Source of the DNA: a virus
Lineage: Duplodnaviria; Caudoviricetes
DNA: 64,000 nt
Reading direction: 5' to 3' (one strand)
IMG/VR virus record: IMGVR_UViG_3300031555_001437
The notes beneath the pieces were generated by a model that was not told the origin of the DNA, ran no database searches, and was given only the letters and a program-made list of their open reading frames with translations. The number at the start of each line of letters is the position of its first letter. Within the stretch, counting starts at the first letter, position 1. Below, piece after piece: positions 12,674-52,864 of this stretch. Made by a program: the position numbers and the translations under genes.

Positions 12674-15600
12674 ATGTCAACTAAGAAAATACAAATTGTC
12701 GGCAGTTTAGTTCCTGACGTTGCTACTAGTGGCCAAAACGGATTAATGTCCTCTGCCGATAAAGTTAAATTAGACAGTATTGCAACTGGAGCGACCAATA
12801 CTGTTGTTGATGATGCTCTAAATGATGCATCAACAAATCCTGTTCAAAATAAAGTTATTAGTTCTAAGTTTAATGAAGTCGACGCTAAATTTGCAGAAGC
12901 AAAAGTGTTTGTTGCTATTTATGGCGTAACGACTTATCAAGAGGTTATCAATGCTGTTAACGCAGGTCGTGTCGTACAAGCTAAAAACGAGGCTGGAATC
13001 ATTCACAATCTAGCCGTGGCGGCAGCAGGCGAAGGCTGTGTATTCACACAAACCGAAGGTATGGCGGTGTATGCCTTAATTTTAACTCTTGATGATCAAT
13101 GGGAAGAGGGTTATATTGAGTTACCAACTGCAGATGGGTATTATACTAAAGACGTTATCGACCAGCTTCTTGTAAACAAAGCTGACACTACTCTTGCCAC
13201 AACTACATCACAAGGTTTAATGTCCGCTGAAGACAAAAAGAAGTTGAATACTATTGCAGAAGGCGCTACAAAAGTTATTGTTGATAGTTATCTCAGCACT
13301 GGTTCTAACAACGCTATAAGTAATGCCGCTGTTACTGAACGTTTTATGTCTCTAACACCTGTAATGGGTTATACTGATCCAAGTCAATCTGACTATATGA
13401 GTCCTGCAGCCGTATTGAGTGCAGCGACTTCTGGCAAAACTGTTTACATGATTCATCAAGGGAACATAGATGGACTCGGGACTGTTATCATTACATTTAA
13501 TAATGCATCTTTGTTTTATTCATTAGACGGAGACGGCATGTACGTAGTTGCAAACCAGATTGTTCCTCAAGCAGATGGAAGCTATGTTAACGCGCAGTTA
13601 AAGGGCATATTGGATGAAACTAATAGTACATCACATTGGGAGTTATCTTCAGAGCCTATCGCTAAGCAAAGCGACGTAGAGCAAGCACTCAGTGATTATC
13701 CTCTAATTGGCAACACTACAGAGTTAACTCCTACTCAAGTGGCTGAGGCAATTAATGCAGGTAGACCTATTTGTATTAATCATAATGACGCAACATATGG
13801 ACTGCTCACGATTAATTATGCTGGCCTCGCAGTTGATCAGCAATGTGTCCTTGCTTCCACAATAGTATACTATGCAGGAAACTTTATGATTTGCGAGCTA
13901 CTTGGTTCTCTCGTCGATAATCAGTGGCAAGTAATGTCTACAGTTGTTGCAGAAAAAACTACAGCAACATCCTCGCAAGATGGCTTAATGTCTGCAGCTG
14001 ATAAGTCTAAGCTTGACGGAATCGCAACTAACGCTAACAACTACACTTTACCATCAGCTGGCTCTTCTCTTGGTGGCGTTAAGTCAGGTGGCGATGTTAC
14101 AATTAGTGATGGTGTTATTACAGTTAAAGATGATAGCCACAATCATGTTATCTCTAATATTGATGGTTTACAAGACGCACTGAACGCAAAGGCTACGAAA
14201 GATGCTGCAAGTCAGTCTGCCGCAGGACTTATGTCTGCAGATGACAAGAAAAAACTCGATGGCATCGCTACTGGTGCAACGAAGATCACTGTAGACTCTG
14301 CATTGAGTTCCTCTTCTGCGAATCCTGTTCAAAACAAAGCGGTTCACGCTGCTTTAGCAGATAAGGCTGATAAAAACCACCCTCACGATTACATCCCAAC
14401 TTCTCAAAAGGGAGCGGCTAGTGGTGTTGCAAGTCTTGACAGTAATGGCAAGGTTCCTACTTCCCAACTTCCTTCTTACGTAGATGATGTTATTGAGGCA
14501 ACTAGCAAATCTTCCTTCCCTGCAACAGGCGAAACTGGCAAGATTTATGTTGACACTTCTACTAATAAGACATATAGATGGGGTGGTTCAGCATATGTTG
14601 AGATTTCCGCTTCTCTTGCAATAGGTACGACTAGTTCTACTGCTGCTGCTGGTAATCATATTCACAGCGCTGCGACTACTTCTGTTGCAGGTTTGATGAG
14701 TGCTGCTGATAAGTCTAAATTAGACGGTATCGCAAGTGGAGCGAATAAATATACACACCCGACATATACATCTAAGACCTCTGGCTTATATAAGATTACT
14801 GTTGACGGTGAAGGTCATGTCTCTGGAGCAACTGCGGTAGCTAAGTCTGATATTACCGCACTAGGCATCCCGTCTTCCGATACGACATATAGTGCTGCGA
14901 CTACGAGTGCGGCAGGTTTGATGTCTGCATCAGATAAGTCCAAACTGGATGGTATTGCAAGCGGAGCTAATGCATATACGCACCCTACATACACTGCAAA
15001 GGGTTCTGGCCTGTATAAAGTTACTATCGACGCAAGCGGACACGTATCCGCTGCAACTTCGGTAACTAAGACAGATATCACTGCTCTTGGTATTCCTAGT
15101 AGCGACACGACTTATTCTGCAGCAACAACCAGTACAGCGGGTCTAATGAGTGCTTCCGATAAATCTAAACTCGATGGTATTGCGTCTGGAGCAACCAAAT
15201 ATAGTCACCCAACTTATACATCAAAGACGAGTGGATTGTATAAGATCACAGTTGATGGAACTGGTCACGTTTCTTCAGCGACCGCTGTTGCAAAATCCGA
15301 TATCACTGCTCTCGGTATTCCGTCCTCTGATACAACATACTCAGCAGCGACAACATCCTCTGCTGGATTAATGTCTGCAGCGGACAAAACAAAACTAGAC
15401 GGTGTTGCTACGGGAGCTAATAACTATACGCTTCCTGCAGCAGGTTCTTCTCTTGGCGGTGTTAAAACTGGTGGAGACGTTACTATTAGTGACGGAGTTA
15501 TTACAGTTAAGGACGACAGCCACAATCACGTTATTGCTAATGTAGATGGTTTGCAAGATGCACTTAATGCAAAGGCTACAAAAGATGTTGCAAGTCAGTC

Positions 15601-18600
15601 TGCCCCTGGTCTTATGAGTGCTGATGATAAGAAGAAGTTAGACAGTGTTGCAAGTGGGGCTAACGCATATAGTCTGCCTACTGCGTCTGCAAGCACTCTT
15701 GGTGGTGTTAAGGTTGGTACAAACCTGAGCATCTCGAATGGTGTTTTGTCTGCTAAAGATACAACATATAGTGCAGCGACTACGAGTGCGGCAGGTCTCC
15801 TGTCCGCAACTGATAAGTCAAAGCTTGACGGTATAGCTACTGGTGCGACGAAAATCACAGTAGATTCTGCGTTGAGCTCTTCTTCTACAAACCCTGTTCA
15901 GAATAAAGCAGTTAACGCTGCTTTGGAAGGAAAAGCTGATAAGTCACAAGCTATTTTCTATATTCAAGGCGGTGGCACTACTGATACTACTAATAAAGTA
16001 GCAACTTGGACTGGTTCTCATAGCGACATTACTGAGTATTATGATGGCCTCATGATTGCTTATAAAGTTGGAACTGCTGCTTCTACAACTACTACATTAA
16101 ATATTAACAACCTCGGCGCTGTTAAAGTTGTAAGAAACGTTACTACAGCAGTTTCTACTGCTTATGGTGTTCATGCTATTGTGCTGTTAACATACACCAC
16201 AGACAGTAGTGGAACTTCTTATTGGAAGGTTGCCGATTATGACAGCGACACCAAGACTCGTTCTTCAAATAAAGCAGATACAAAGATGTATATCATCGGC
16301 GCATCTTCTCAAAGTACAAGTGGTCAAACTACTTATAGTAACAGCAAGTGTTATATTGGAGCAGACAACTGCTTGTATAGTGACGGTAAAAAGGTTGCGA
16401 CAGCTGATGCAGCAACTGCTGACTCTGCAGGTTTAATGTCTGCTGAAGATAAAACTAAGCTTGACGGTATTGCGTCTGGAGCTAATAAGACAGTTGTAGA
16501 TAGTGCTCTGAGTAGCTCTTCTACAAACCCTGTGCAGAATAAAGTTGTTAATACTGCACTTGAGGAAAAGATGAATGCTACCAATCCAGTCGGAACTGGT
16601 TCATTCAGTATGAACAGAAAGAGTGGCACCGCCATTGGAACGAGGTCTTTTGCAGAAGGTCATGATACAACTGCTAGCGGAAATTATTCTCATGCAGAAG
16701 GTAGTGGTACGATAGCCCTAGGACTCAGATCTCACGCAGAAGGTAACAGTAGAACGGAGTCAGTTACGTTAACTGGTGCTGCCAATGTAAAAACCTATAC
16801 TTTTAGTAGTGCTTCTTCGATAAGAATTGGCAATATTATAAACTACGGAGATATATATGCCAAAGCTACGAGCATTGACACAACAAATAAGACGGTAACT
16901 TTAAATAAGACGTTGTCTGCCGATACTGCTTTATCGTCTGCTGGTGCAAAAATAATATATGGTATTGCTGTTGGACTAAACTCTCACTCAGAGGGTAATA
17001 GTACAACTGCTGGAGGGACTGATTCTCATGCAGAATGTTATAATACAATTGCTAGTGGAGATAATTCTCATGCAGAGGGTAGTACTACAATAGCTAGTGG
17101 AAGCAGCTCTCACGCAGAAGGTAGTACTACAATAGCTAGTGGATACTATTCTCATGCAGAGGGTTATGGCACAACTGCACAGAGCAAATCTCAGCATGTT
17201 CAAGGCGAGTATAATATCGTCGATACATCCGATAGTGTTGGCCTTCGTGGCAAATATGCTCACATTGTAGGTAATGGCTCTGCAGAAGACGCTCGTTCCA
17301 ACGCTCATACTCTAGATTGGAATGGTAACGGTTGGTTTGCGGGTCAATTAAAAGTTGGTGGCACTGGTCAAGATGACACTGCAGCTAAGACCGTAGCAAC
17401 GCTAAATGACATACCTGAGAATGTCCAATCCGACTGGAACCAGATGGATGAAACTGCGCCTGATTATGTAAAGAATAGAACACACTACTACAAGGTCATA
17501 GAAAATCCTATATTAGAGGAGACTGCATTAGAGTTTACTCCTGATAACAGCTACTATGTCGCAATAACGCCTAGTACTACATTGGTCGTAGGAAATACCT
17601 ACAAAGTTGTTTATGATGATGTAGAATATAAATTAACTGCTACTCTTGATGAAGTCAACAATACGGTGTGGTTAGGTAACGCTAGTATAGCATATGGTGA
17701 TCCTATCAGTGAAGAACCTTTCTTTATTGAAGGATTTTCCAATCAAAATCTGGCAGGTGTTTACCCTAAAGAAATAAGTGACGTTAACCTTGACTGGGTA
17801 ACAACATATACTCATACCATATCTATTTCCGAATACCATGAAGACCTCAAAAAACTCCCCGAACCAGTAATTCCTGACGAAATACCTCGTATGAAGGATG
17901 TACCTCATGTTGAAGGTAGCGGTAAGATTTTACTAGCAAGAGCTATAGAGCAAAAAAGAGCTAGTCAACAGGTTTTACTTGGTTTAAACGATACTCTGAA
18001 ACTTGAGTCAGATAAGACGTATGCTGTAATATATGATGGTGTCACATATAATACTATACCAGTAAGTACACAGGAAGGTTATATTGAGTTAGGTGCTATG
18101 TGGGACGAAAATACTTATGAGTATGACTACTCTGAATATCCCTTTAATATATACTACGACAGTGAAAGTCTCAAAACATATATAATATCTAGTGCTGTTG
18201 GTGAACATACAGTTACCATTAAAGAGGGTAGTATTCATAAACTAGATGCAGTGTTCCTACCAGACAATGTATTAATTGGTGAAAGTGAAACTGTAATATA
18301 CCATGAGACGTATAAATTTACTACTACAGCTAGAAAAGTCAATTCATCATATCCTATACAAGTAGACAAGGAATACACTGTTGTATTTGATGGTAATATA
18401 TATAAACTCACAGTTGATTATGATGAAGATAATGACGAATATCATATAGGAACGCTCCAGACTAATGGTTTTTATATTTATGGATATCCTGGTGAGTCCT
18501 GGCAAACTAGCGTTAAAACATATGGTTTCCATACAATTTCAATTAGTACAACAATTGCATCTAAAATGCCATCTAGTTTACCTGCAGTAACAGCAAGCGA

Positions 18601-18679
18601 TAACGGAGCTTTTCTTCGTGTCGTTGACGGCACATGGGCGGCAGTTCAATTACCTAATGTAGAGGAGGGTGAGTTTTGA
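12674..18679 (+). CDS. Giant modular fibre/adhesin (2001 aa) with YadA-head-like SHAEG repeats
   Basis: Eleven GLMS-DK connectors, modules shared with 7450..9540, (A)SGxxSHAEG repeats at ~16640-17210, and three repeated C-terminal beta domains (Y.V.YDG..Y). Confidence 0.8.
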   Translation: MSTKKIQIVGSLVPDVATSGQNGLMSSADKVKLDSIATGATNTVVDDALNDASTNPVQNKVISSKFNEVDAKFAEAKVFVAIYGVTTYQEVINAVNAGRVVQAKNEAGIIHNLAVAAAGEGCVFTQTEGMAVYALILTLDDQWEEGYIELPTADGYYTKDVIDQLLVNKADTTLATTTSQGLMSAEDKKKLNTIAEGATKVIVDSYLSTGSNNAISNAAVTERFMSLTPVMGYTDPSQSDYMSPAAVLSAATSGKTVYMIHQGNIDGLGTVIITFNNASLFYSLDGDGMYVVANQIVPQADGSYVNAQLKGILDETNSTSHWELSSEPIAKQSDVEQALSDYPLIGNTTELTPTQVAEAINAGRPICINHNDATYGLLTINYAGLAVDQQCVLASTIVYYAGNFMICELLGSLVDNQWQVMSTVVAEKTTATSSQDGLMSAADKSKLDGIATNANNYTLPSAGSSLGGVKSGGDVTISDGVITVKDDSHNHVISNIDGLQDALNAKATKDAASQSAAGLMSADDKKKLDGIATGATKITVDSALSSSSANPVQNKAVHAALADKADKNHPHDYIPTSQKGAASGVASLDSNGKVPTSQLPSYVDDVIEATSKSSFPATGETGKIYVDTSTNKTYRWGGSAYVEISASLAIGTTSSTAAAGNHIHSAATTSVAGLMSAADKSKLDGIASGANKYTHPTYTSKTSGLYKITVDGEGHVSGATAVAKSDITALGIPSSDTTYSAATTSAAGLMSASDKSKLDGIASGANAYTHPTYTAKGSGLYKVTIDASGHVSAATSVTKTDITALGIPSSDTTYSAATTSTAGLMSASDKSKLDGIASGATKYSHPTYTSKTSGLYKITVDGTGHVSSATAVAKSDITALGIPSSDTTYSAATTSSAGLMSAADKTKLDGVATGANNYTLPAAGSSLGGVKTGGDVTISDGVITVKDDSHNHVIANVDGLQDALNAKATKDVASQSAPGLMSADDKKKLDSVASGANAYSLPTASASTLGGVKVGTNLSISNGVLSAKDTTYSAATTSAAGLLSATDKSKLDGIATGATKITVDSALSSSSTNPVQNKAVNAALEGKADKSQAIFYIQGGGTTDTTNKVATWTGSHSDITEYYDGLMIAYKVGTAASTTTTLNINNLGAVKVVRNVTTAVSTAYGVHAIVLLTYTTDSSGTSYWKVADYDSDTKTRSSNKADTKMYIIGASSQSTSGQTTYSNSKCYIGADNCLYSDGKKVATADAATADSAGLMSAEDKTKLDGIASGANKTVVDSALSSSSTNPVQNKVVNTALEEKMNATNPVGTGSFSMNRKSGTAIGTRSFAEGHDTTASGNYSHAEGSGTIALGLRSHAEGNSRTESVTLTGAANVKTYTFSSASSIRIGNIINYGDIYAKATSIDTTNKTVTLNKTLSADTALSSAGAKIIYGIAVGLNSHSEGNSTTAGGTDSHAECYNTIASGDNSHAEGSTTIASGSSSHAEGSTTIASGYYSHAEGYGTTAQSKSQHVQGEYNIVDTSDSVGLRGKYAHIVGNGSAEDARSNAHTLDWNGNGWFAGQLKVGGTGQDDTAAKTVATLNDIPENVQSDWNQMDETAPDYVKNRTHYYKVIENPILEETALEFTPDNSYYVAITPSTTLVVGNTYKVVYDDVEYKLTATLDEVNNTVWLGNASIAYGDPISEEPFFIEGFSNQNLAGVYPKEISDVNLDWVTTYTHTISISEYHEDLKKLPEPVIPDEIPRMKDVPHVEGSGKILLARAIEQKRASQQVLLGLNDTLKLESDKTYAVIYDGVTYNTIPVSTQEGYIELGAMWDENTYEYDYSEYPFNIYYDSESLKTYIISSAVGEHTVTIKEGSIHKLDAVFLPDNVLIGESETVIYHETYKFTTTARKVNSSYPIQVDKEYTVVFDGNIYKLTVDYDEDNDEYHIGTLQTNGFYIYGYPGESWQTSVKTYGFHTISISTTIASKMPSSLPAVTASDNGAFLRVVDGTWAAVQLPNVEEGEF

Positions 18680-19707
18680 TGGCGGAATATCTTATTAGAG
18701 AAGAACAAGTAAAACAGTTAGCCGATATTGTAAGAGAGAAAAATGCTGATATTATGTTAGTTTCTGATAGAGATAATTTTAATATTAGCGAGTTACCTGA
18801 AGGTATTACTAGTATTGGTGATTATACATTCTATAACTGTACTAAATTAGCTTTAACATCTTTACCTGCAGGTGTTACTAGTATTGGTCATCAGACTTTC
18901 TATAACTGTACTAATTTAGCATTGACGTCATTACCTGAAGGTATTACTAGTATTGGTATTTATGCATTTGATGCTTGCCAGAACTTAGCATTAACATCTC
19001 TACCTGAAGGTATTACTAGTATTAACTTGAGGACATTCTACGGTTGTACTAATTTAGCATTGATGTCATTACCTGAAGGTATTACTGTTATTGGACAAGC
19101 CGCCTTCTATAACTGTACTAATTTAGCATTGACGTCATTACCTGAAGGTATTACTAGTATTGGTGATTATACATTCTATAACTGTACTAAATTAGCTTTA
19201 ACATCTTTACCTGCAGGTGTTACTAGTATTGGTAATAGTGCGTTCTCTAAGTGTTCTCATTTAGTACTAACATCTTTACCTGCAGGAATTACTAGTATTG
19301 GTGATTATGCATTTAATGGTTGTACTAATCTAGCATTAACGTCATTACCTGAAGGAATTACTAGTATTGGTGAAGGTGTTTTTTGGTCGTGTTCTAATCT
19401 AGCATTAACATCTCTACCTGAAGGAATTACTAGCATTGGTAATAGTGCGTTCTCTCAGTGTTCTAATCTAGAATTAACATCTCTACCTGAAGGAATTACT
19501 AGTATTGGTCGTCAGGCTTTCTATAACTGTGTCGGCCTAACAACTTTAACTTTCAAAGGTACACCTACATCAATTAATTCACAAGCATTTCAGAATTGTA
19601 CCAATCTAACAACAATCAACGTTCCATGGGCTGAGGGTGCAGTTGCTAATGCACCATGGGGAGCTACTAATGCTACTATAAATTATAACTATACGGAGGT
19701 AGGATAA
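18679..19707 (+). CDS. BspA-type (LRR_5) leucine-rich repeat protein 1
   Basis: Eleven 23-aa repeats LALTSLPEGITSIGxx(A/T)FxxC plus a cap ending APWGATNATINY. Start overlaps the previous stop (TGATG). Confidence 0.9.
   Translation: MAEYLIREEQVKQLADIVREKNADIMLVSDRDNFNISELPEGITSIGDYTFYNCTKLALTSLPAGVTSIGHQTFYNCTNLALTSLPEGITSIGIYAFDACQNLALTSLPEGITSINLRTFYGCTNLALMSLPEGITVIGQAAFYNCTNLALTSLPEGITSIGDYTFYNCTKLALTSLPAGVTSIGNSAFSKCSHLVLTSLPAGITSIGDYAFNGCTNLALTSLPEGITSIGEGVFWSCSNLALTSLPEGITSIGNSAFSQCSNLELTSLPEGITSIGRQAFYNCVGLTTLTFKGTPTSINSQAFQNCTNLTTINVPWAEGAVANAPWGATNATINYNYTEVG
18788..19545 (+). repeat. 69-bp tandem coding repeat array (LRR units)
   Basis: Near-identical TTAGCATTAACATCTCTACCTGAAGGAATTACTAGTATTGGT cores every 69 bp. 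18793-18888 equals 19138-19233 exactly (96 nt). Confidence 0.9.
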
Positions 19708-19708
19708 T

Positions 19709-20392
19709 ATGGGTCTTACTTGGAGTCAGATTATATCACATGTAAGTAACATGGAATGTAAAGATAAATCTATTCTTAAAGAATTAATAGATGATACTAT
19801 TAGCATAAATACTCTTCCAGATAGATTTAATGATATTACTTATATTGCAGACAGTGCTTTCAGTGATTGTAAAAACTTAGCATTAACATCTCTACCTGAA
19901 GGAATTACTAGTATTGGTCGTCGGGCTTTCTATTATTGTACTAAGCTAGCCTTAACATCTTTGCCTGAAGGTATTACTAGTATTGGTGATGGTGCATTCA
20001 CTGGTTGTTCCAATTTAGCCTTAACATCTTTGCCTGAAGGAATTACTAGGATTGGTGATGGTTTTACATTCGCTGGTTGCACTAATCTAGCTTTAACGTC
20101 ATTACCTGAAGGAATGACTAGAATTGGTTCCTATGCTTTCCAGGGATGTCCCAATTTAGCATTAACGTCTCTACCTGAAGGAATTACTAGGATTGATTAT
20201 GGTGCTTTCTTTAACTGTAACGGTCTAACAACTTTAACTTTCAAAGGAACACCAAATTCAATTGCAGTTGACGCATTTTATAGTTGTACAAACCTAACAA
20301 CAATCAACGTTCCATGGGCTGAGGGTGCAGTTGCATACGCACCATGGGGAGCTACTAATGCTACTATAAATTATAACTATACAGGAGAATAA
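19709..20392 (+). CDS. BspA-type (LRR_5) leucine-rich repeat protein 2
   Basis: Five full repeats of the same unit plus a near-identical cap to LRR protein 1. Confidence 0.9.
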   Translation: MGLTWSQIISHVSNMECKDKSILKELIDDTISINTLPDRFNDITYIADSAFSDCKNLALTSLPEGITSIGRRAFYYCTKLALTSLPEGITSIGDGAFTGCSNLALTSLPEGITRIGDGFTFAGCTNLALTSLPEGMTRIGSYAFQGCPNLALTSLPEGITRIDYGAFFNCNGLTTLTFKGTPNSIAVDAFYSCTNLTTINVPWAEGAVAYAPWGATNATINYNYTGE

Positions 20393-20396
20393 GGAT

Positions 20397-20672
20397 ATGG
20401 AAATCAAAAAACTATATAAATACACTCGTCCAGATGGGGGCACTTCAACATCTCCTGTCCAGCCTGACGGCGAATACGTAGAAATGGTTCGTCTAGTTGC
20501 AGACGAAGGCAAAGTATTAACAAAAAACAACATCGAGTTTTATGCGTGTGTTGATACTGACTCTTCTGAAGGTTGGTATGAAGTAGATGACACTCAGAGC
20601 GATTTAAATAGTGACCCTGATGGTCAAATTTCAGATGATGAACTAATCGCTATGCTTGAGGAGGTACTATAA
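20397..20672 (+). CDS. Small phage tail-associated protein
   Basis: 'RLVADEGKVLT...WYEV' motif, common in small genes after fibre-tip genes. Confidence 0.65.
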   Translation: MEIKKLYKYTRPDGGTSTSPVQPDGEYVEMVRLVADEGKVLTKNNIEFYACVDTDSSEGWYEVDDTQSDLNSDPDGQISDDELIAMLEEVL

Positions 20673-20674
20673 TC

Positions 20675-21073
20675 ATGACTAGACAAGAAGCAAAAGCATT
20701 TATTATTGCCGCTGTAAAGCTTCGTGGTCTTGCAACTGATGAGATGTCTCTGCAAGTACCAAACCTCTATCCCACATGGAAAGAGGGCAAAAATTATATC
20801 GCAGGAGAAAGAGTTCTCTACAATGAGGTGCTTTATAAGGTTCTACAGGCACACACTTCTCAGGCTGACTGGACCCCTGCTGTTGCGACAAGTTTGTTCG
20901 CAAAGGTTCTTATTCCTGATGAGAACGTTATCCCTGAGTGGGAACAGCCTGATAGCACTAACCCTTACATGAAGGGTGATAAGGTAAAGTACAACGGTCA
21001 GACATATGTCTCCACTGTTGATAACAATGTTTGGGCTCCCGATGCGTATGGTTGGGAGTTATATACGGAGTAA
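20675..21073 (+). CDS. Tandem CBM5/12 (chitin-binding-like) domain protein
   Basis: 'W....Y..GERVLYN..LYKVLQAHTSQADWTP' and 'W.QP....YMKGDKVKYNG.TY.S..DNNVWAP..YGW'. Confidence 0.85.
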   Translation: MTRQEAKAFIIAAVKLRGLATDEMSLQVPNLYPTWKEGKNYIAGERVLYNEVLYKVLQAHTSQADWTPAVATSLFAKVLIPDENVIPEWEQPDSTNPYMKGDKVKYNGQTYVSTVDNNVWAPDAYGWELYTE

Positions 21074-21083
21074 TTTTATTTAA

Positions 21084-21121
21084 GACCTGGGCTCCGAAAT
21101 ATGGGGCTCAGGTTATTTTTT
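21084..21121 (+). terminator. Intrinsic terminator
   Basis: GACCTGGGCTCC...GGGGCTCAGGTT stem followed by ATTTTTT. Confidence 0.75.
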
Positions 21122-21140
21122 AAGAAAAGGAGGGACTGCA

Positions 21141-24100
21141 ATGTTTGTTGTAACACACAGAAGAGCAACAAAGAAACAATGGGAAGAGTCAAATGTGATT
21201 CCAAAAGAGAGCGAACTGGTAGTTGAAGACTGTGAAGATGGAACTTTTAAAACAAAAATTGGCGACGGTATACATGTGTTTACAGATTTGCCATATCAAA
21301 ACTTAGACGAAGAACTTTCCGAACTCAAAACATACGTGGATGGTAAAGTTGTTGACGGTCTTTACTATGAAGACAACATGCTCTATCTAACTTTAAACGG
21401 AGAGATTGTCTCTGATCCAGTTGAAATAGTAGGTGGCGGTGGCGGCGGTGGTTCGTCTTATAGTATGCGTGTAATTAATGGTATGTCGTCAAGCACACTA
21501 ACCGTTGCAATTGCAGAGAAAATTCTGCTCAATGCGTCGTTTTATGAAGAGTATGGCGGTGTATCAACTGGAGTGAATGGTTCGCTTGAAGTGTACTATA
21601 AACTTGCATCCGAAGAAGAATGGAGTTTTCATAGCAAACAAACCGTTGCTCAAAACACACAATTCTCAGTTGATGTAGCAAATATTCTTGATAAAAGTTC
21701 TGTGACAAATATTCGGTTTGTAGTCACGGGTGGAGAATCTGGAATTGTGCGTACTCTAACATATAACATTACGCAGGTAGAGGCGAGTATTTCTGCAGTA
21801 AACTTTAGTAGTTCTGCCATCTACACTGGTAATATACCCTTCCAATACAAATGTGTTGGACGTAATTTACAAAAAACTGTTTATTTTGAAATAGACGGAG
21901 AGGTGTGTGATACGATTGATGTTGGCACAAGCCACAACGCAGTTTTGTCGCACACCATCAAGATGCTTGGTAATTATAGTTATGGAGCGCATGACTTAAG
22001 AGTATATTTCAAGACAAGTGAGGGCGCTATGTCTAATGTTCTTAGGTATGCTATTTTGTATGATAACAAAGAGTCTGCAGCTCCGATGATTGGTGTAGTT
22101 TGCCATAGTGACGAAATTACCTATGGAGATATTCTGAGTATTGATTATATTGTCTACACTCCTGGACAGGAAACCACTGACGAGCTTCAGATTCGAGTTT
22201 ATGACGATGATGCAATTTACGAGACTACGAGTCTTGTGAATGTGGCAAATAATACGCCATACACGTGGAACGGTACTTCGTATCCTGTTTCTGGCAAGGT
22301 GTATGTTGAATTTAAGAGTGGAGAAACTGTTAAAACTGTTTCGGTGTTGATTAATGAAATTCAGAGTGAATATGAGCTGGCTCAAGTCGCGACTAATCTT
22401 GTGTATAGCTATAGCGCAAACGGTAGAAGCAATAACGATGTCGGTAAAGAATTGTACGAGTGCAATTATACAACGTCTAATGGAGTACAAACCGTGATCG
22501 AGGGACGATTTAGCGGATTTAATTGGGTGTCAAACGGTTATATTGACCGTGAATCACTCACGCTTAGCGGAGATGCTCGACACACAATTGCGTTGCCTAT
22601 GTTCTCTACGAGTTATACAGACAGAGACGGGCAAACGGTCAATCTTGAAAGTGCAACTGGTGCTACTGTAACCACAAATGGCCGTACGTTTGAGATTGAG
22701 TTTAAGGTTAGCAACGTTACCGACAGTAACGCGCAAATTATTAAGTGTATGTCCGCAGAGCATGCTGGTTTTGTTGTGACACCACAGAATTGCTACTTGC
22801 TTTCTTCTAATGGCGCTAACGTGCAAACCGACGAGACTGGATTTATTGAGAATGAAGAAGGTATCGCTGCGGCATATATTCGAGACAACAAGCGCATCAG
22901 ACTCAGTTTTGTTATAGAACCAAAGGGCTCTATTAAATACACTCTTGAGGATGGGACCGAAATGTCTGGCCAGTGCGTAAACATTTACATTAACGGCCAG
23001 TATGCAAACTCATATGTATATCCAGATGGTGCAAGATTTACGAGCTCAGAATATATTACAATGGGTAGTAATACATGTATTCTTAATGTATATGATGTGC
23101 GCGTGTATAATCGTGGCTTGAGCGAGGCGGAAATTCTTCAAAACTATAAAGCATCGCCTCTTTCTGTTCAAGATAAAATCTTGAGATTTGAAGACAACGA
23201 CATCTTAACTGATGATGGAGATGTCGATTATTATAAAGCAATTAACAAATATCCGTGCCTGCTTATCACTGGTCCACTTTCTCCTTATAAGGGCGCCAAC
23301 GGTGTCAAGATGGAGGGCAAAGTTGAGTCTGGGGTAACACTGACAAGGCCAAACGGCAGTGGAGGTCACACTGTTGAATTTGACTTGCTTGACAAGGACG
23401 TAGCAGGAAACTGGGTAAGTTGTAACAACGTACAAGGTACATCTTCTGTTAAATTTCCTATAAAGAACTATAAAGTTTATCTTGTTCAGGTTTTATATAA
23501 TGAGGATGGTACGCCACAGACGGAAACAAACGATGAAGGTAAGATAAAGGTAAAAACTAAAAAAGTTAAATATTCCTTAAAAGGTAAAGATGATGAAGGC
23601 AATGATTTATCTATTGGAGAAAGCACTCTTTGTTGGAAGGGCGACTACATGTCGTCTGACCACGCAAACACCTTTAATGCAAATCTTGCCGATTCTCTGT
23701 TTGATGATATCCTTGAAGCTCAGCGAGAAGATCCGCGTGTACAGAATACGGTGTATGGATTTAGATGTCTGCTATTCCGTAGGGACGACATTGGCAAGCC
23801 GATTGAGTTTGCTGGCGATGGAGCACTCAATAACGACAAGGGCAACACTAAAACATTCGGTCTTGAATGTGAGGGTGACAAAGGCAATGCAACCAAACGT
23901 CAGAAGTGGGAGTTCTTGAATAATACAGAGCCCCTGACCTCATTCCAGACGGATAGATTTTTTGAAGAGATTATTTCTGAGGGCAAAACTGTTCTTCGTG
24001 TAACACAGGGTCTTGAGTCAACGTATCCAGACCAGGGCGACCTCAAAGACAAAGGGCTTACCCCGAAATACGATTACATTCAAACCTTGTATGCGTGGGT

Positions 24101-26972
24101 ATGTCAGAGAGCTAACTTCTGGGATGCTTCGACGGATACAGTAGAAGAACCATATGTTTATCAAGGCGCTGAATATTATACTGAGCGCGAATACCGCAAG
24201 GCTATTTTTATTAACGAATTTGATAAGCACTTTAATAAGAACCACGCACTCATCTATTATCTGTTCATGGAGTTTACAGCTCTTTGTGATAATAGAGCAA
24301 AGAACATGTTTTTGAGATGCGAAAATGTATATAATGAGCACCTACTTGATACTGATGGAAATGAAATTTCTATTATGGACTGTATCGAGGCAGGTACTGG
24401 AATTGTCGACATAAGCCGCATTGACTGGGAGAATTCTACGTTTGCGGTGTGGATTACAGATCTGTACGACCTTGACTCATGTTATGGCGTAGAGAACTCT
24501 GGTTATTTGCAAATACCGTATTACGCAGATTGGAATTACCAGTTGAATGGAACGCAAAAATTTAACGGACGGGAGTCTCGTTTGTGGTTGATGATTGAGG
24601 AAGCTTTAAGTGATGATATTAAGGCTAAGGCGCAGATATTGACAGAGCGCGGCATTGGCGAAGGTGGACTTAATTACGACACTTTATACGACGTACATAT
24701 CAAGAACAACGCGTTACTTGTATGCCCTGCTGTTGTTAATAGAGACATGACTCACAAGTATTCCGATCCGTGGATAGAAGGCTTCGTTGATTATTCACTC
24801 GAAGGTAATCCTGTTCGTCATATTTCTGATTATAAGTATTTGCAGCGTGGTAGCCGCACCCAGCAAAAAGATGCGTATATCTACAAGCGCTCCAACATGC
24901 TTTATAGCAAATATGAATGTAACAAGTTCTTGAACAACAGCATTAACTTCCGTGTTGGAACCAATGGCGGAGTTGTAGCTTCTGAGAGTGGCATATCGAT
25001 TACAGCTAACCAAGTACTGTATCCTGCTGTTAAGTATGGAGACGGCCCTACAGCTATTGTCATTTCTGACGAAAAGACTGCGGCTGGCGTTTCAACAACA
25101 ATCACAAAGCCTGGAACAACGGACGCAGATAAAGTAGGTTTCTCTGATACTATTTTCATTGCTGGCGGCACACTGCTGACCGATATTGGCGACATTTCTA
25201 AATTTAGACCATATGAGATGCAACTACAGAACGCTACTGGCTTGCGCAGCCTGATACTTGGTTCAGATGAGGAAGGCTACGAGAATGTGCAGCTTAAAAA
25301 TATTGACACTTCTGGATGCAAACTTCTAGAGAAACTCAATATTATGGGATGCACCGCACTTGGCCCACTTGACTTGTCCAGCAACGGCCTGTTGAAGGAG
25401 CTTTATGCGTCGAACTCAAGCGTGCGTTCTGTGACGCTTCCGAACGGCGGTGTGCTGGAGAAACTTTATTTGGGTGATATTGTTGACCTTGAAATTCTCA
25501 ATCAATCAAACCTGAAGGTGTTTGAGTGCACAAGCTATAACACACTAGAAAGATTGCGCGTTGAAAATACGCCAAACGTTAATACTTTAGAGATGGTTAG
25601 TGCGCGTTTGCCAAAGCTTACTGGTGGTATACGTCTTGTTGGTATTAATGAGACAATTGATGACATGAGTGTACTTGAACGTCTGATGGGCGATGAGGCT
25701 CGTGGTAAGTATATTGATATGAATGGTAATCTCTCTGAGGACAAGACGTTGTATCCATATATCTCTGGTACTGTACACGTTGACACCATTACTGGCTCTC
25801 AACTACAGCAGCTCAAATCATTCTATCCATATCTGAATATCACATACGACAACCTGATCGCAAACATTATCTACATGAGCGAAGATGGTTTGATTGAACT
25901 GCATAGAGCTATTGTTGTTAATGGAGCTACCGCAGATGATATTGTTGGAACTATCATCGAGACTCCGACCAAGGAAAGCACTGCGCAGTACAACTTTACT
26001 TATGGTGGATGGAGTACTGTTCCTGGCGGCGAGCCCGAGGACGACGCTTTGGAGAATATCGTTATCGACAGAATTGTTTATGTGGCGTTTAACAAAACAA
26101 TTAGAAACTATACTGTTAGATTCTACAATGACACGACCCTGCTCTATACTGTTTCTGTTCCGTATGGCTCCAATGCTGTTTATGCTGGAGCAGACTTTGA
26201 AAAGCTTGGAGTGAAGAACCCAGAGCTCTATGCGTTTATTGGCTGGGCACCAAATCCAGAGAATATCACTGGAAACTTGGATTGTTATGCACAGTATGAA
26301 TTCCTTGGATATATTAAGGATAGCTGGACGACGATTGCTGAAAACGTCGCAAACGGTACATATATTACCATGTATGCGACTGGTAAGTTGAAAGAGTTGG
26401 TTTTGACGTATGCTGATGGCTTTACAGAAACGTTAGACGTTGAGATTGTTGGGTTTGACCACGATAATTTGGCAGATAATTCTGGCAAGGCTGGAATTAC
26501 ATTTATTGCAAAAGAGATTTCCGCGAGAACGTCTCCAATGAATTCTGGTAGCACGTCAAACAGTGGAGGTTGGGAGTCTTCGTATATGCGCAGAGCGACG
26601 ATGGCCACTATATACAATGCTCTGCCAGAAGAACTGCGCAGCGTTATTAAACCAGTAATTAAGAAGGCATCTGCTGGTAGTAGAACCACCGATATTATTG
26701 ATTCTGTTGATAGCATCTGGCTTCCTTCTTATGTTGAGCTTGATAGTGATGCAAGCGGCATATATTTACAAGAAGGTTCTACCTATGCAATACACACCGA
26801 CGATGAAAGCCGTCAAAGATATAAAGAGGGTACTACGACTCAAACGATATATTGGACGCGCTCTCCTGTTGCAAACTCTCAATATGGATTCTGGTATGTT
26901 ACGACAAACGGCGAGATGACAACATTTGGTTCTGACTCACAAATGGGTGTTGCATTTGGCTTCTGCATTTAA
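21141..26972 (+). CDS. Multidomain tail appendage: Mtd_N / LamG-like / CotH-like kinase / LRR / InlB-B repeats / DUF6273 (C-type lectin-like)
   Basis: 'KIGDG..FTDLPY' N-terminus. LamG-like 'IYING...YDVRVYNRGLS'. Kinase-like QGTSS..P.KNYK, DNRAKN and YDLD. LRRs at ~25200-25600. 'PTKESTAQY..GGW' repeats. C-terminal 'GGW..S.MR...LP..L...WLPS..E...YWTRSP...GV..GFCI'. Confidence 0.8.
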   Translation: MFVVTHRRATKKQWEESNVIPKESELVVEDCEDGTFKTKIGDGIHVFTDLPYQNLDEELSELKTYVDGKVVDGLYYEDNMLYLTLNGEIVSDPVEIVGGGGGGGSSYSMRVINGMSSSTLTVAIAEKILLNASFYEEYGGVSTGVNGSLEVYYKLASEEEWSFHSKQTVAQNTQFSVDVANILDKSSVTNIRFVVTGGESGIVRTLTYNITQVEASISAVNFSSSAIYTGNIPFQYKCVGRNLQKTVYFEIDGEVCDTIDVGTSHNAVLSHTIKMLGNYSYGAHDLRVYFKTSEGAMSNVLRYAILYDNKESAAPMIGVVCHSDEITYGDILSIDYIVYTPGQETTDELQIRVYDDDAIYETTSLVNVANNTPYTWNGTSYPVSGKVYVEFKSGETVKTVSVLINEIQSEYELAQVATNLVYSYSANGRSNNDVGKELYECNYTTSNGVQTVIEGRFSGFNWVSNGYIDRESLTLSGDARHTIALPMFSTSYTDRDGQTVNLESATGATVTTNGRTFEIEFKVSNVTDSNAQIIKCMSAEHAGFVVTPQNCYLLSSNGANVQTDETGFIENEEGIAAAYIRDNKRIRLSFVIEPKGSIKYTLEDGTEMSGQCVNIYINGQYANSYVYPDGARFTSSEYITMGSNTCILNVYDVRVYNRGLSEAEILQNYKASPLSVQDKILRFEDNDILTDDGDVDYYKAINKYPCLLITGPLSPYKGANGVKMEGKVESGVTLTRPNGSGGHTVEFDLLDKDVAGNWVSCNNVQGTSSVKFPIKNYKVYLVQVLYNEDGTPQTETNDEGKIKVKTKKVKYSLKGKDDEGNDLSIGESTLCWKGDYMSSDHANTFNANLADSLFDDILEAQREDPRVQNTVYGFRCLLFRRDDIGKPIEFAGDGALNNDKGNTKTFGLECEGDKGNATKRQKWEFLNNTEPLTSFQTDRFFEEIISEGKTVLRVTQGLESTYPDQGDLKDKGLTPKYDYIQTLYAWVCQRANFWDASTDTVEEPYVYQGAEYYTEREYRKAIFINEFDKHFNKNHALIYYLFMEFTALCDNRAKNMFLRCENVYNEHLLDTDGNEISIMDCIEAGTGIVDISRIDWENSTFAVWITDLYDLDSCYGVENSGYLQIPYYADWNYQLNGTQKFNGRESRLWLMIEEALSDDIKAKAQILTERGIGEGGLNYDTLYDVHIKNNALLVCPAVVNRDMTHKYSDPWIEGFVDYSLEGNPVRHISDYKYLQRGSRTQQKDAYIYKRSNMLYSKYECNKFLNNSINFRVGTNGGVVASESGISITANQVLYPAVKYGDGPTAIVISDEKTAAGVSTTITKPGTTDADKVGFSDTIFIAGGTLLTDIGDISKFRPYEMQLQNATGLRSLILGSDEEGYENVQLKNIDTSGCKLLEKLNIMGCTALGPLDLSSNGLLKELYASNSSVRSVTLPNGGVLEKLYLGDIVDLEILNQSNLKVFECTSYNTLERLRVENTPNVNTLEMVSARLPKLTGGIRLVGINETIDDMSVLERLMGDEARGKYIDMNGNLSEDKTLYPYISGTVHVDTITGSQLQQLKSFYPYLNITYDNLIANIIYMSEDGLIELHRAIVVNGATADDIVGTIIETPTKESTAQYNFTYGGWSTVPGGEPEDDALENIVIDRIVYVAFNKTIRNYTVRFYNDTTLLYTVSVPYGSNAVYAGADFEKLGVKNPELYAFIGWAPNPENITGNLDCYAQYEFLGYIKDSWTTIAENVANGTYITMYATGKLKELVLTYADGFTETLDVEIVGFDHDNLADNSGKAGITFIAKEISARTSPMNSGSTSNSGGWESSYMRRATMATIYNALPEELRSVIKPVIKKASAGSRTTDIIDSVDSIWLPSYVELDSDASGIYLQEGSTYAIHTDDESRQRYKEGTTTQTIYWTRSPVANSQYGFWYVTTNGEMTTFGSDSQMGVAFGFCI

Positions 26973-38919: not shown

Positions 38920-41900
38920 ATGGCTCTAGGTTCAGATGTTCAATATAAAGCCAGCGTATTGTTTCAGGCTGCGTATGACAAAGAGTCTGCGAAAAATTTT
39001 GAAAATCGTCTCGTAGATCTTTCAAAAAACGCTGCGGAGATGTCAAAAAAAGAATTTGCCAAAGCTTTTAAGGGGCTAGGCAATATAATTAACGAGGCTC
39101 TCCGTACTTTGAAAATGCCAGAGATCGATGTGTCTAATATCTTAAAAACAAATACAAACATTGAGGCATTTAGCAAATTGGGCGAGGAGTTTGGTGAGAG
39201 TTTTAACGCGGGCATTGAGCTTGCTTTAACGAATAACGGAAACATTAACAAACTTTTAGAAATAAAAAGAAGAGAGCTTGAGAAAAGTTCTTTGTATAAA
39301 GCAACACAACGCGCACATGCCATCAAACATCTCACAAAAGATGGAGAAGCATACAATATTAGATCTGGAAATATCCGTGGTAGAGACTTTTCAAATACAG
39401 AAACTGAGAACATTGCTGCGGAGATGGATGATATTTATAAAAATATCGAAAATCTTGCGGTTGCTTTAAAGTCGATAAATAGTAAAACACATCCAGATGA
39501 GTTCAGAGCAAAATTTAATAGTTTGCAAGACGAGATTACGAAGTACATAGAAGGCGTTGTTGGATTACAAGATATCCCCTCTTTGTCTACAAATCCTAAA
39601 TACACAGTTAAATCACTTAGACAGCTGACAGCTAAATATGGTTTTGATGAAGAATATTGGGAAACAGTATTTAAAAGTTATCAAAAAAATCTCAAAGAGA
39701 AACAAGGGACAGAAGCATACACTAGAATGCTTGAACTCGAAGATGCTATCAGTAAACTAGAAGCACAAGCTAAATACGCATCAAAGTCTATTCGAGATAT
39801 TACTCAGGCAGTAGGGGAAATGTCTTCTTTGAGTCGACCAGAGCAAAAGAAAAAAGTTAAGGGTGTTGAGCAAGTAATTTCTGATGTTGAAAGCGGAAAA
39901 GCTGGACAGGTTGGAAGGGCGTTTAATCAATATAAGGATGCTAAGGATGCGGGCTCTGACTGGGTTACGATGTATTCAAAAGCCCTGAAGTTCTTGACTG
40001 CGTTCAACGCAATGAACCCAGAAAAACAGTTAACTGCAGAAAGAGACTGGCGTATACTGGCGGAACGTCTTAACCCGATGTTTGACCAGATAAAGAGTTC
40101 ACTGGAGTTATTTGTTCAGACTGCAAATGCGCGTCTATATCCTCCTTCTGGAGGTGGAGATGGCACTGGCGGAGGCACAGGTGGCGGTTCTGGCTCTGGT
40201 ATAGGTGCTGGAGGAAGCGGCTCTGGAGGCGTTGGTGCTGGTACACAGCCAGAGCAATCTAATAACGCTCCTAAAATAGAAGAAGAGAACAATGCTCTTA
40301 AAGAAAAACTAAATCTTCTCAAACAAATTGCTGCTGCATATGAATATCAGGCGGATGCCGAATTGGACGACAATGACCAAGAGTGGGATAACGCTAGAGA
40401 GTCAGTAGAGGAGTTTGAAAATGCATATTATTCGGCTATTGTCACTATGCAAGATGGCTCTAAGGTTGAGTTGTTGCTGGACGATGAATTTGCTGAAACG
40501 GCTCAGAATATTTTGGCTGATGCAAAAAATATTCAAAATATAGACCTTGTACCGAAGAGCGCCGAAGCTGCGATTCAAGCATATAATCATGTTGAGCAAG
40601 TACAAGCAAATATTCGTTCTTCTTTGAGTAGGTCGTGGAGTCAGCCAATTAATGGCAAAACAGAAGATGCTCTATTGTATTTAGGTCGGACGAGAACGAT
40701 GTTGGAAACTGCTATTTCCAACATGAACCAGGGTGATCCAGACGGTTCATGGGATTTCTCTGGCGCACAACAAACCGCAACCCAGTTGCTGTCTACAATT
40801 GAAGACATGCAGCAAAAGTTTGCGATGATGTTGCAAACAGAGCATAAGTTAAAAGAAATGAATATCACCCCTGACGCAGAACATTATTATGATGTTGTTG
40901 AAGGAATTAAAAATAACACGCTTACTACTGTCGACCAGTGCATTGCGAAGTATAAAGAGCTAGCTGGAATTGTTGATGTTGTAGACGATAAGACGGATAC
41001 AACTCCCGAAACTGGCAGAGGCGCAGGAGATGAAAGTGGCTCTGGTGGTTTTGGTTCTGGTTCTGGCGATGGAGGTGGCGGTGGTCCAAATGATGGGGAG
41101 CTCAAAAACCTCGAGGCTATTGAATCTGTGGTTGGACGTATTAAAACGGCGGTAGGTGAAAAATCGAAAGCGTTCTTAGAAGAGCAGGTCATTGTAAAGA
41201 GAGTCGCACAGTCTGAAGTCCATTCTTTGGGTGAAGTAGAGAAAAAAGTTAATGCCGTAAGAGTAGCGCTAGAGCGTATTTGTGGTGGTAAGATTAGCTC
41301 TGGCATGATGACCATCAACATCAAGACTAGCGGAAATGGCAGTGGCAAGAAGCCTGGAACTGCTAAGAGCGGTATGGATGATGAGATTTTTGACGCTAAA
41401 ATCGCAACACAATTCTCAAAGTTATTTTTAATGACAGAGCAACTCAGAGCGTCTGGTAAACTAACCGACACGGTTAGAGACAAACTAGATTTACTCTGGG
41501 ATGATTTAAATAATGTGAGCGACGCTAAGTCTCTTACACTATGGAGAGAAGAGTTTGCTCAGATTAATAATGAGATTAAAGAAATTGCTCTTGCAAATAA
41601 ATCTGTTGAAGATGTTGACGTAGACCCGTTTAGTGCTGCACTTGAAAATGCAAAATTATATAACAAGTTTGTGCTGAAAATGCACGGAACTAATGACGCC
41701 GAACTCAAGAATAAATACGAAACGATGGCAAACGATCTTCTAGTTGAGCAGTCTCAGTTGTTAAATGGGATTGTACTAACCAAAGAGCAAGAGAAGCAGC
41801 TAGATGATTTGAAAAATCAAAGAGAGCTTGATATTCTTGAATTACAAAAGAAGCAGGAACTGCAGGCCAAAAAGGCTGCAGATGCAAAAGCCAAAAACGA

Positions 41901-52837: not shown

Positions 52838-52864
52838 ATAGTTTGCTTGGGAGGTATATATTAT

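Follow-up and report, generated by a model that had tools for sequence, protein, structure and literature searches.

In TpLRR/BspA-type leucine-rich repeat (LRR) proteins, the units follow the LRR_5 consensus spacing L..L.LP..L..I...AF..C, and the named members are adhesins, with HupY/LrrG entered in NCBIfam as a 'leucine-rich repeat adhesin'. In lamprey and hagfish, somatic assembly builds each VLR from an incomplete expressed gene and many silent cassettes that flank it, with the help of AID/APOBEC-like deaminases, and VLR variation lies on the concave strand. In phages, the tail-to-lysis junction is the typical place of receptor-binding proteins; to our knowledge, those of gut-Clostridia phages are largely unknown. 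The gp38 adhesin (T2/T6-type) has an N-terminal part for attachment, which binds the tip of the fibre, and a part for specificity, built of highly conserved motifs and hypervariable segments in alternation; chimeric specificities result when recombination takes place at or close to these motifs (PMC3157838).

Our full-text literature searches, outside subscription journals, found no description of patterned variability in phage LRR_5 proteins, and no structural description of PcpA/LRR_5 was found. The LRR_5 signal in the SPLASH preprint concerns a MITE-like element and is distinct from the phage LRR pattern.

Here, we analysed two adjoining LRR genes within a 64-kb stretch of phage DNA (the window). 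The best explanation, to which we give a probability of roughly two in three, is that they encode fibre-associated LRR_5 adhesins with a scaffold under purifying selection and unit-specific residues, subject to slow conversion and array exchange.

Gene layout, fold and family

Both LRR genes are packed tightly between the 2001-aa fibre gene and more giant fibre-like genes (Table 1), and the fibre-gene stop overlaps the ATG of LRR gene 1 (TGATG). This ATG is supported as the start because the homolog P0020 begins MAEY. The N-terminal segment of gene 1 may be the attachment part; it shares 63% identity with the N-terminus of P0020, a protein with just about 4 units. Fibre residues 1585-1743 are homologous to a domain that P0032 (E 9e-17) and P0016 (5e-13) carry N-terminally, fused in both to an LRR array with the cap. 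A complex prediction that paired residues 1-110 of gene 1 with the 257-aa fibre C-terminus scored 0.01 (mark 0.34), which speaks neither for nor against contact between them.

Table 1. Coordinates of the two LRR genes, their parts and their neighbours in the window.
Feature	Coordinates	Strand	Details
Upstream 2001-aa fibre gene	12674..18679	+	ORF call; Pfam Phage_head_fibr and PTR; PHROG tail-fibre families
LRR gene 1	18679..19707	+	342 aa from ATG 18679; ORF listing: TTG 18676, 343 aa
Gene 1 N-terminal segment	18679..18792	+	38 aa; predicted helix at about residues 9-23 (DSSP of model)
Gene 1 array	18793..19551	+	11 full 23-aa units, exact 69-nt register
96-nt exact tract, copy 1	18793..18888	+	unit 1 and first 27 nt of unit 2
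96-nt exact tract, copy 2	19138..19233	+	unit 6 and first 27 nt of unit 7
Gene 1 degenerate last unit and C-terminal cap	19552..19707	+	FKGTP...VPWAEGAVANAPWGATNATINYNYTEVG
LRR gene 2	19709..20392	+	227 aa; begins 1 nt past gene 1 stop
Gene 2 array	19892..20239	+	5 full units; unit 3 (20030-20101) has 24 aa, 1-aa insertion
Gene 2 degenerate last unit and cap	20240..20392	+	20294-20382 vs 19606-19694: 86/89 nt
91-aa ORF	20397..20672	+	directly downstream of gene 2; acidic C-terminus
132-aa CBM_5_12 protein	20675..21073	+	Pfam PF02839, 66 bits

Downstream, the 91-aa ORF matched no Pfam, PHROG or NCBIfam family. The CBM_5_12 protein has 175 relatives among IMG/VR contigs, and an LRR ORF, sought by pattern, was present in one of the 80 loci fetched from these 175 (L049). 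An Rfam scan of the whole window gave nothing reaching gathering scores. A RuvC-like resolvase and two homing endonucleases are also encoded in the window.

Pfam LRR_5 (PF13306, cut-off 27.7) scores 278.6 bits on gene 1 and 161.9 bits on gene 2. The AF2 model of gene 1 (pLDDT 87.7) has 4fs7, 4gt6, 4fdw and the TpLRR 6mlx as its best structural matches (Foldseek E 8.5e-12 for 4fs7; 34% identity and rmsd 3.4 for 6mlx), and phmmer against solved LRR_5 proteins gave 1e-50 to 1.8e-29. Both proteins are TpLRR/BspA-type LRR_5 solenoids, in agreement with the BspA-type assignment of the earlier note, and the adhesin role that it proposed for them, in a phage fibre cluster, is plausible. The NCBIfam model for the adhesin HupY/LrrG (NF047961) scored 107.5 bits against a cut-off of 1250; the repeat type alone is in common.

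The family is a very large, uncharacterised one of gut phages, with 7369 of the 8000 scored candidates at E<=1e-10. The few named hosts among the GenBank matches are Ruminococcus, Lachnospiraceae and Oscillospirales. The cap is invariant or nearly so in alignment A1, and its motif occurs in 56 of the 120 homologs listed; gene 1 residues 293-343 as a query, which includes the degenerate LRR unit, returned 92,618 matches, mostly generic long LRR proteins that carry no information on the cap.

Both genes probably encode small fibre-associated receptor-binding proteins (adhesins). We infer that these attach to the virion and bind a ligand, with four positions of each unit as the binding face. A role outside the virion, as fibre assembly factors, infected-cell display proteins or host-protein binders, is unlikely, despite some points in its favour: small genes behind fibre genes commonly encode chaperones, and the scaffold is common to bacterial cell-surface proteins such as P0085 and P0068, which carry N-terminal hydrophobic leaders. 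Against it, the fusions in P0032 and P0016 link family members to fibre-type domains; the family sits in the tail-to-lysis junction, with the LRR gene after tail or tail-fibre genes and/or before the endolysin in four of six loci examined; and arrays are swapped between otherwise similar phages (see below).

Repeat units and conversion between them

The earlier note had counted 16 full 23-aa units over the two genes, one of them with a 1-aa insertion, and both the count (11 + 5) and the dipeptides that it listed were recovered exactly. Tandem Repeats Finder reported a period of 69 with 10.7 copies and 76% matches at 18793-19530, and a second array at 19854-20209. With at most 3 mismatches allowed, the window has 16 matches to the framework 24-mer CCTGAAGGWATTACTAGTATTGGT, every one of them within the two LRR genes, against an expectation of 0 from 100 shuffles. 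All 16 units fit the LRR_5 spacing in a 69-nt register.

Within the unit scaffold NLALTSLPEGITSIG..AF..C, 19 of the 23 positions are near-constant. Nine have zero entropy over the 16 units, and P2, F13 and C16 are invariant (unit numbering from LP). Variation is found at four positions, or six counting 17 and 18: amino-acid entropy is 3.0, 2.4, 2.65 and 2.3 bits at positions 10, 11, 14 and 15, and 2.0 and 1.5 bits at positions 17 and 18. These peaks bear out the earlier observation that variation is concentrated in two dipeptides flanking (A/T)F. The same peaks (10, 11, 14, 15) appear in 648 units of the 120 listed homologs, and entropy within proteins, taken over 77 of them, is 1.6-2.1 bits at these four positions and at most 1.13 elsewhere.

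At the DNA level, the framework had been called almost invariant, and this stands for codons 2-9 of the unit, which are nearly fixed, but not for the 19 framework codons as a whole, where the synonymous distance among units is pS = 0.41. Where two units have the same residue, their codons agree in 1232 of 1748 pairs (602 expected from window codon usage). Together, these two values indicate that the framework has been homogenised at the DNA level, yet only partly.

The duplicate reported five units apart is exact (96/96 nt), with an extension of 0 nt on both sides. It stops just ahead of variable codon 10 and is isolated in surroundings about 75% identical. The remaining unit pairs at offset 5 are identical at 44-55 of 69 nt, not above other offsets, and for this reason we rejected duplication of a five-unit block as its origin. 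Units 7 and 2 are mosaics: the 5' end of unit 7 equals unit 2 (0 differences) while its variable block is nearest to unit 10 (1 difference), and the 3' end of unit 2 equals unit 5 (0 differences). The two caps, for which the earlier figure of 86/89 nt was reproduced, differ at 19647, 19648 and 19650; they are 96.6% identical to each other vs 70-88% to other family members in DNA. In 3 of 17 other family arrays, too, stretches of 101-128 nt recur exactly at an offset of whole units. The isolated 96-nt tract, the mosaic units and the near-identical caps support the proposal that gene conversion or recombination has occurred within the conserved framework.

It is highly improbable that the 96-nt duplication is an assembly artefact. 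Short-read graphs are unable to bridge an exact repeat of this length, and no contig runs across it; the Logan contigs are short unitigs, which can neither bridge the repeat nor count units. Against an artefact, exact contig pieces from independent runs hold the left contexts of both copies (for example 18655-18822 and 19010-19189) and likewise the right contexts (for example 18793-18901 and 19204-19399). The arrangement in the window is supported because it is the sole linear path that uses all four repeat contexts, and the similar tracts in 3 of 17 other arrays point the same way.

Array stability, selection and the proposed explanation

Array stability was assessed on short contig pieces with exact matches, drawn from four runs of low depth, and on ortholog groups of other family members. 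We turned to other members because searches of GenBank phages and IMG/VR yielded no close relative with synteny to this phage: blastn of 17500-21500 against GenBank phages gave a single 100-nt match, and the fibre C-terminus gave one weak locus in IMG/VR.

The long contig pieces listed for the four metagenome runs show 0 differences from the window, save for 3 letters in one X2 piece. Two Logan contigs have odd joins: one in X1 links 19399 to 19878 through a 34-nt shared repeat, and one in X2 carries gene-2 cap letters within the gene-1 cap. Both joins pass through exact repeats of at least 31 nt and may be assembly crossings at k=31. Joints such as 18840>19294 probably derive from other organisms, because their depth is 16-25 vs about 4 for the phage and their sides are 21 nt.

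In two ortholog groups, the array length is the same in 30/30 and 26/26 contigs, so that unit number is fixed. Variable columns among orthologs fall on 10 of 32 variable positions vs 46 of 152 framework positions (Fisher p=1.0), and pN/pS over 28 distinct orthologs is 0.25 at the variable positions vs 0.30 on the framework. Moreover, the residues at the variable positions are conserved between array groups A and B. Judged on these alignments, the variable residues are shown to be under purifying selection among orthologs, as strong as on the scaffold.

These results bear on the VLR-like active diversification that the earlier note proposed, taken here to mean an RT-free system in which frequent or programmed recombination among units or cassettes keeps many array variants per population. 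Conversion tracts and mosaic units are indeed present, the joins in X1 and X2 offer alternative arrangements, and a resolvase and homing endonucleases are at hand in the window. Nevertheless, we regard such a system as barely credible. Silent donor cassettes are absent from the 64 kb, because all 16 framework matches fall in the two expressed genes, and neither a deaminase nor an RT, an invertase or a site-specific recombinase was found in the window (31 ORFs against Pfam, 30 ORFs against PHROGs). The listed long pieces of the four runs match the window apart from those 3 letters, and both odd joins may be the crossings described above. In relatives, the arrays are fixed and the variable positions carry no extra polymorphism; since the earlier note had itself named arrays that are fixed in the population and in relatives as a refutation, the active-system reading fails for these relatives. 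What survives of it looks like slow evolutionary shuffling by gene conversion and cassette exchange.

A neutral origin, in which the repeat expanded recently and its four variable positions are free of constraint on the surface and take no part in binding, is also improbable. Among the 16 units, pN/pS at the variable positions is 1.22; this fits neutrality, although positive selection and relaxed constraint cannot be told apart by it, and free x positions exist in all LRR families. However, purifying selection among orthologs equals that on the scaffold, the variable residues are kept between groups A and B, and the four positions have a strong bias towards N/Y/S/G/D (69%, compared with 34% over entire proteins). 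In addition, the same positions vary even in arrays whose units are merely 58-62% identical in DNA.

Exchange also extends to whole arrays. Loci L106 and L152 are 95% identical in the N-domain and 86% identical from the cap onward, with no match between their arrays. On this alignment, related phages are shown to exchange whole arrays between a conserved N-domain and cap, and such an exchange between phages that are otherwise alike is what one would expect of a host-range determinant.

Under the explanation that we favour, of fibre-associated LRR_5 adhesins, each protein would have a short N-terminal attachment part, followed by its 23-residue units in an array and, at the C-terminus, by a conserved cap. 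Purifying selection would hold the 19 scaffold residues of each unit constant, and gene conversion or unequal crossing-over between units would partially homogenise the scaffold at the DNA level. Positions 10, 11, 14 and 15, flanking the buried A/T-F pair, would be unit-specific putative ligand contacts. New specificity could then arise slowly by point change at the four variable positions, by conversion tracts and unit duplications with breakpoints in conserved scaffold DNA, or by whole-array exchange between the conserved N-domain and the cap.

A broader proposal, which we consider doubtful, is that thousands of gut-phage tail proteins form a natural family of modular binders and that their conserved scaffold and cap DNA is selected as recombination homology for host re-targeting. 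Each LRR unit would present four residues as a specificity patch, while its scaffold stays constant; the key homology would be the nearly invariant 24-27 nt just 5' of the first variable dipeptide, plus the cap; and units and whole arrays would be exchanged within and between phages to reach new host targets. Such a family would be an LRR counterpart of the gp38 design, with antibody-like contact residues rich in Y/S/G/N/D.

The family is not only large but located where host-range determinants sit, and array-swapped between otherwise similar phages. Should the four positions of each unit be the contacts, a short residue code carried by a stable scaffold could serve to read host specificity and to engineer it. 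If true, this would also be a natural example of repeat proteins that pair concerted scaffold evolution with preserved unit-specific residues.

Comparison with known systems

DGRs resemble this locus in placing localised variability in a phage receptor-binding protein. We rejected a DGR reading, with no RT (31 ORFs against Pfam, 30 against PHROGs) or template repeat found in the window; besides, the variable codons of the phage genes differ from one another at every codon position, not at sites of template adenines, and the scaffold is an LRR instead of a C-type lectin or Ig fold.

Like the phage proteins, VLRs combine an LRR scaffold and capping modules with variability confined to certain positions and a history that resembles gene conversion. 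They differ in that both phage LRR genes are complete ORFs with no framework match elsewhere in the 64 kb, no deaminase family is among the window ORFs (Pfam), and no population diversity appears in the contig pieces of the four runs or in the ortholog groups. The phage variable residues, moreover, sit outside the LxxLxL strand. A VLR-like reading was rejected on these missing parts within the window.

The FNIP/FGxxFN LRR of giant viruses, with Crov588 (6nyr) among our fold matches, has a comparable motif (FGxxFN vs IGxxAF). However, it is another LRR class, with 22-residue units that form a closed circle or a cap-swapped dimer, and it comes from a eukaryotic-virus context without a tail-module role.

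The TpLRR/BspA-type proteins (6mlx of T. pallidum; the Bacteroides/Faecalibacterium surface proteins 4fs7 and 4gt6) share the 23-residue units and give strong Pfam, sequence and fold matches. In 4fs7, non-core positions vary between repeats throughout, whereas the phage arrays vary at four (or six); in the phage family, moreover, a conserved cap (VPWAEGAVANAPWGATNATINYNY) is added, and the genes lie in phage tail modules.

The closest functional analogue, by likeness of design, is the T-even adhesin gp38. It has four hypervariable loops on a glycine-rich core, in contrast to the solenoid with variable unit number found here. The two have no sequence or fold relation, as read from Pfam and PHROGs, which give only LRR and unnamed families for our genes, rather than from a direct comparison with gp38. 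As an analogy only, the LRR genes share its design of conserved motifs and hypervariable segments with recombination at the motifs, and like gp38 they are small genes adjoining a long fibre gene.

Setting of the two LRR genes

This window is a structural module of a phage in which all large ORFs lie on the + strand. Among their products are three fibre-like giants (2001, 1943 and 3231 aa), a holin, tail proteins and proteins resembling tape measures. Gene 1 and gene 2 are closely packed within the fibre cluster. We took 18679 as the start of gene 1 for two reasons: its ATG shares nucleotides with the stop codon of the 2001-aa fibre gene, and the homologous protein P0020 begins with MAEY. Both products matched Pfam LRR_5 ('BspA type leucine rich repeat'), with 278.6 bits for gene 1 and 161.9 bits for gene 2 (cut-off 27.7).

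Features of the window and their coordinates
Feature	Position	Strand	Description
2001-aa fibre gene	12674-18679		motif like S.AGLMSA.DK.KLDGIA in many copies
42-nt tandem repeat	17022-17164		within the 2001-aa fibre gene; encodes SHAEG-type repeats
Gene 1	18676/18679-19707	+	LRR gene
Gene 1 array	18793-19551		11 full 69-nt units
96-nt duplicate	18793-18888 = 19138-19233		96/96 nt identical; no extension on either side
Gene 2	19709-20392	+	LRR gene
Gene 2 array	19892-20239		5 full units, one with an extra codon
CBM_5_12 protein	20675-21073		small, carbohydrate-binding; just downstream of the LRR genes
1943-aa protein	21141-26972		C-terminal DUF6273
Tape-measure-like gene	38920-52584		looks split in two
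First part	38920-43197		C-terminus matches Pfam PhageMin_Tail profile positions 2-87
LAGLIDADG homing endonuclease gene	43287-44012		separates the two parts
Second part	44128-52584		N-terminus matches PhageMin_Tail profile positions 86-201
Second homing-endonuclease-like ORF	52847-54166		PHROG HNH and homing endonuclease families; directly 3' of a 2818-aa protein

Several neighbours deserve mention. The last ~400 residues of the 2001-aa fibre hold a repeated '..TY.V.[YF]DG..Y' domain, which elsewhere occurs in fusion with LRR arrays. Relatives of the CBM_5_12 protein are common in phage contigs (175), where they almost never have an LRR neighbour (80 of the 175 loci examined). By eye, the translated 1943-aa protein shows, around residues 1300-1450, an irregular LRR-like stretch of another kind. 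The split arrangement suggests that the tape-measure gene may be interrupted by an intron or an endonuclease insertion; scanning the window with Rfam at gathering scores turned up no group I intron.

Units, protein family and fold

On re-check, the factual statements of the earlier note were all borne out, from the unit counts and the exact 96-nt duplicate to the dipeptides it named and the 86/89 identity of the two caps. Variability is concentrated as it described: over the 16 units, entropy was 3.0, 2.4, 2.65 and 2.3 bits at unit positions 10, 11, 14 and 15 (the four positions), followed by positions 17 and 18 (2.0 and 1.5 bits), with zero entropy at nine positions. The window contains 16 occurrences of a 24-nt framework word, and shuffled versions contained none. 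The proposed invariance at the DNA level is confined to codons 2-9; across the 19 codons of the framework we measured a synonymous distance of 0.41. Same-residue codon pairs were identical in 1232 of 1748 cases vs. 602 expected from window codon usage, and thus the scaffold DNA is partly homogenised. Comparison of the 16 paralogous units with one another gave pN/pS values of 1.22 (four positions) and 0.35 (scaffold).

The protein search with gene 1 gave E<=1e-10 for 7369 of 8000 scored candidates, and identity to gene 1 was at most 73% among the 120 matches listed. The listed homologs have the scaffold NLALTSLP.G.TSIG..AF..C in common, 56 of the 120 carry the cap motif VPW...APWGA, and their N-terminal domains differ strongly; a unit pattern search found 3 to 11 units in the sequences inspected. 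Entropy over 648 of their units peaked again at the same places (>3.1 bits at 10, 11 and 14; 2.7 at 15), with 437 distinct tetrads, and 69% of the residues there were N, Y, S, G or D vs. 34% in whole proteins. Within single proteins (77, each with at least five units), the four positions had an entropy of 1.6-2.1 bits, and no other position exceeded 1.13. Positions 3, 5 and 23 of the scaffold were uniform inside a protein and different between these proteins, a hallmark of concerted evolution.

The 38 matching GenBank phage records were each below 60% identity, and the few named hosts were Ruminococcus, Lachnospiraceae and Oscillospirales. Similar models in BFVD are labelled just 'leucine-rich repeat protein' and come from uncultured phages. 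Many members (proteins P0018 and P0106, ORFs of loci L097, L098 and L134) have an N-terminal helix motif of the type L..(I/V)A.AIR.K.G, to which a helix at gene 1 residues 9-23 is related; such a helix may serve for docking throughout the family.

For gene 1, AlphaFold2 with an alignment of 30 sequences gave a model of mean pLDDT 87.7, exceeding 90 from about residue 100 on. Its best solved Foldseek matches were the LRR_5 surface proteins 4fs7, 4gt6, 4fdw and 4fd0, together with TpLRR 6mlx (34% identity, rmsd 3.4) and PcpA 4cp6, and a sequence search agreed. DSSP marked a two-residue strand at positions 7-8 in every unit; towards the end of the array, in the last units, it also assigned the canonical LxL strand (positions 21 to 1). 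The variable positions are accordingly placed by the model after the second strand, where they flank the buried A/T-F pair, and we infer that they form one exposed stripe.

Past recombination and proposed active diversification

The 96-nt duplicate could be read as the remnant of a five-unit duplication. This was ruled out, since the remaining pairs of units at this spacing match at 44-55 of 69 nt, a level no higher than at other spacings; the same comparison argues for an isolated conversion tract. The tract stops right in front of the first codon that varies in units 2 and 7. The units are mosaics: the 5' 27 nt of unit 7 equal unit 2 (0 differences) and its variable block is one nucleotide from unit 10, while the 3' 24 nt of unit 2 equal unit 5 (0 differences). 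The two caps are 96.6% identical in DNA, vs. 70-88% for other family caps against them (19 of 80 loci matched), and identity falls sharply upstream of 19606. Of 17 other family arrays, 3 (L097, L112, L135) also contain exact tracts, 101-128 nt long and offset by whole units.

Array exchange is seen in a ~40-kb IMG/VR phage lineage (L103-L176), whose LRR gene lies between tail genes and endolysin and joins one conserved N-terminal domain to one of three C-terminal modules: an 8-unit array with cap (group A, 30 contigs), the same array with a different C-terminus (group B, 8 contigs) or an unrelated 4-unit array with cap (group C, 26 contigs). Between L106 (A) and L152 (C), the N-domain is 95% identical, the array unalignable, and the sequence from the cap onward 86% identical.

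The earlier note went further and proposed a VLR-like, RT-free system diversifying a phage adhesin. A framework-word search found no further copy of the unit in the window that might act as a donor, and the window ORFs scanned held no RT, deaminase, invertase or site-specific recombinase. The phage is present at low depth in four animal faecal metagenome runs, and the long pieces listed from them did not differ from the window save for three letters in one contig of run X2 (19647-19650), which are gene-2 cap letters inside the gene-1 cap. Logan contigs of run X1 join 19399 to 19878, that is, gene 1 unit 9 to gene 2. Both this join contig and the X2 contig pass through exact repeats of at least 31 nt, and they may be k-mer assembly crossings or else rare recombinants.

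Array length in group A was the same in 30/30 contigs (28 distinct sequences). Variable columns numbered 10/32 at the four positions and 46/152 in the scaffold (Fisher p=1.0), with pN/pS of 0.25 and 0.30, respectively; group C arrays showed almost no variation. Overall, the four residues are highly different between units and arrays, yet conserved per unit among orthologs, which is how specificity-determining residues behave. The pattern fits neither free positions nor running hypermutation or shuffling. Of the proposal, the evidence supports gene conversion over evolutionary time and the exchange of arrays, both acting on a probable adhesin; it does not support the VLR-like diversification system.

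Putative role and relation to known adhesins

We annotated the neighbourhood of six related loci. Tail proteins, LRR gene and endolysin follow in this order in L106 and L152; the LRR gene lies directly 3' of a tail-fibre gene in L112, an endolysin comes after it in L098, and a tail protein sits just downstream in L137; L097 was the sixth. In two homologs made of an LRR array and cap, P0032 and P0016, the first ~150 residues are homologous to window fibre residues 1585-1743 (E 9e-17 and 5e-13, respectively), and so other phages combine a fibre-type domain and an LRR array in one polypeptide. The fibre cluster, the relatives' tail and endolysin neighbours and these fusions support a putative role as virion-borne adhesins.

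Both proteins are of the LRR_5/TpLRR type; membership in the gp38 family, the VLRs and the DGR targets was rejected for both. The bacterial LRR adhesin model HupY/LrrG matched far under its cut-off. Full-text literature searches yielded no paper describing such a pattern for LRR proteins of phages. The main significance lies in a large uncharacterised family with a clean pattern of four residues per unit. In design, the LRR proteins are like the gp38 adhesins of T-even phages. According to PMC3157838, gp38 attaches through its N-terminal part; in its specificity part, hypervariable segments alternate with conserved motifs, and recombination at those motifs gives rise to chimeras.
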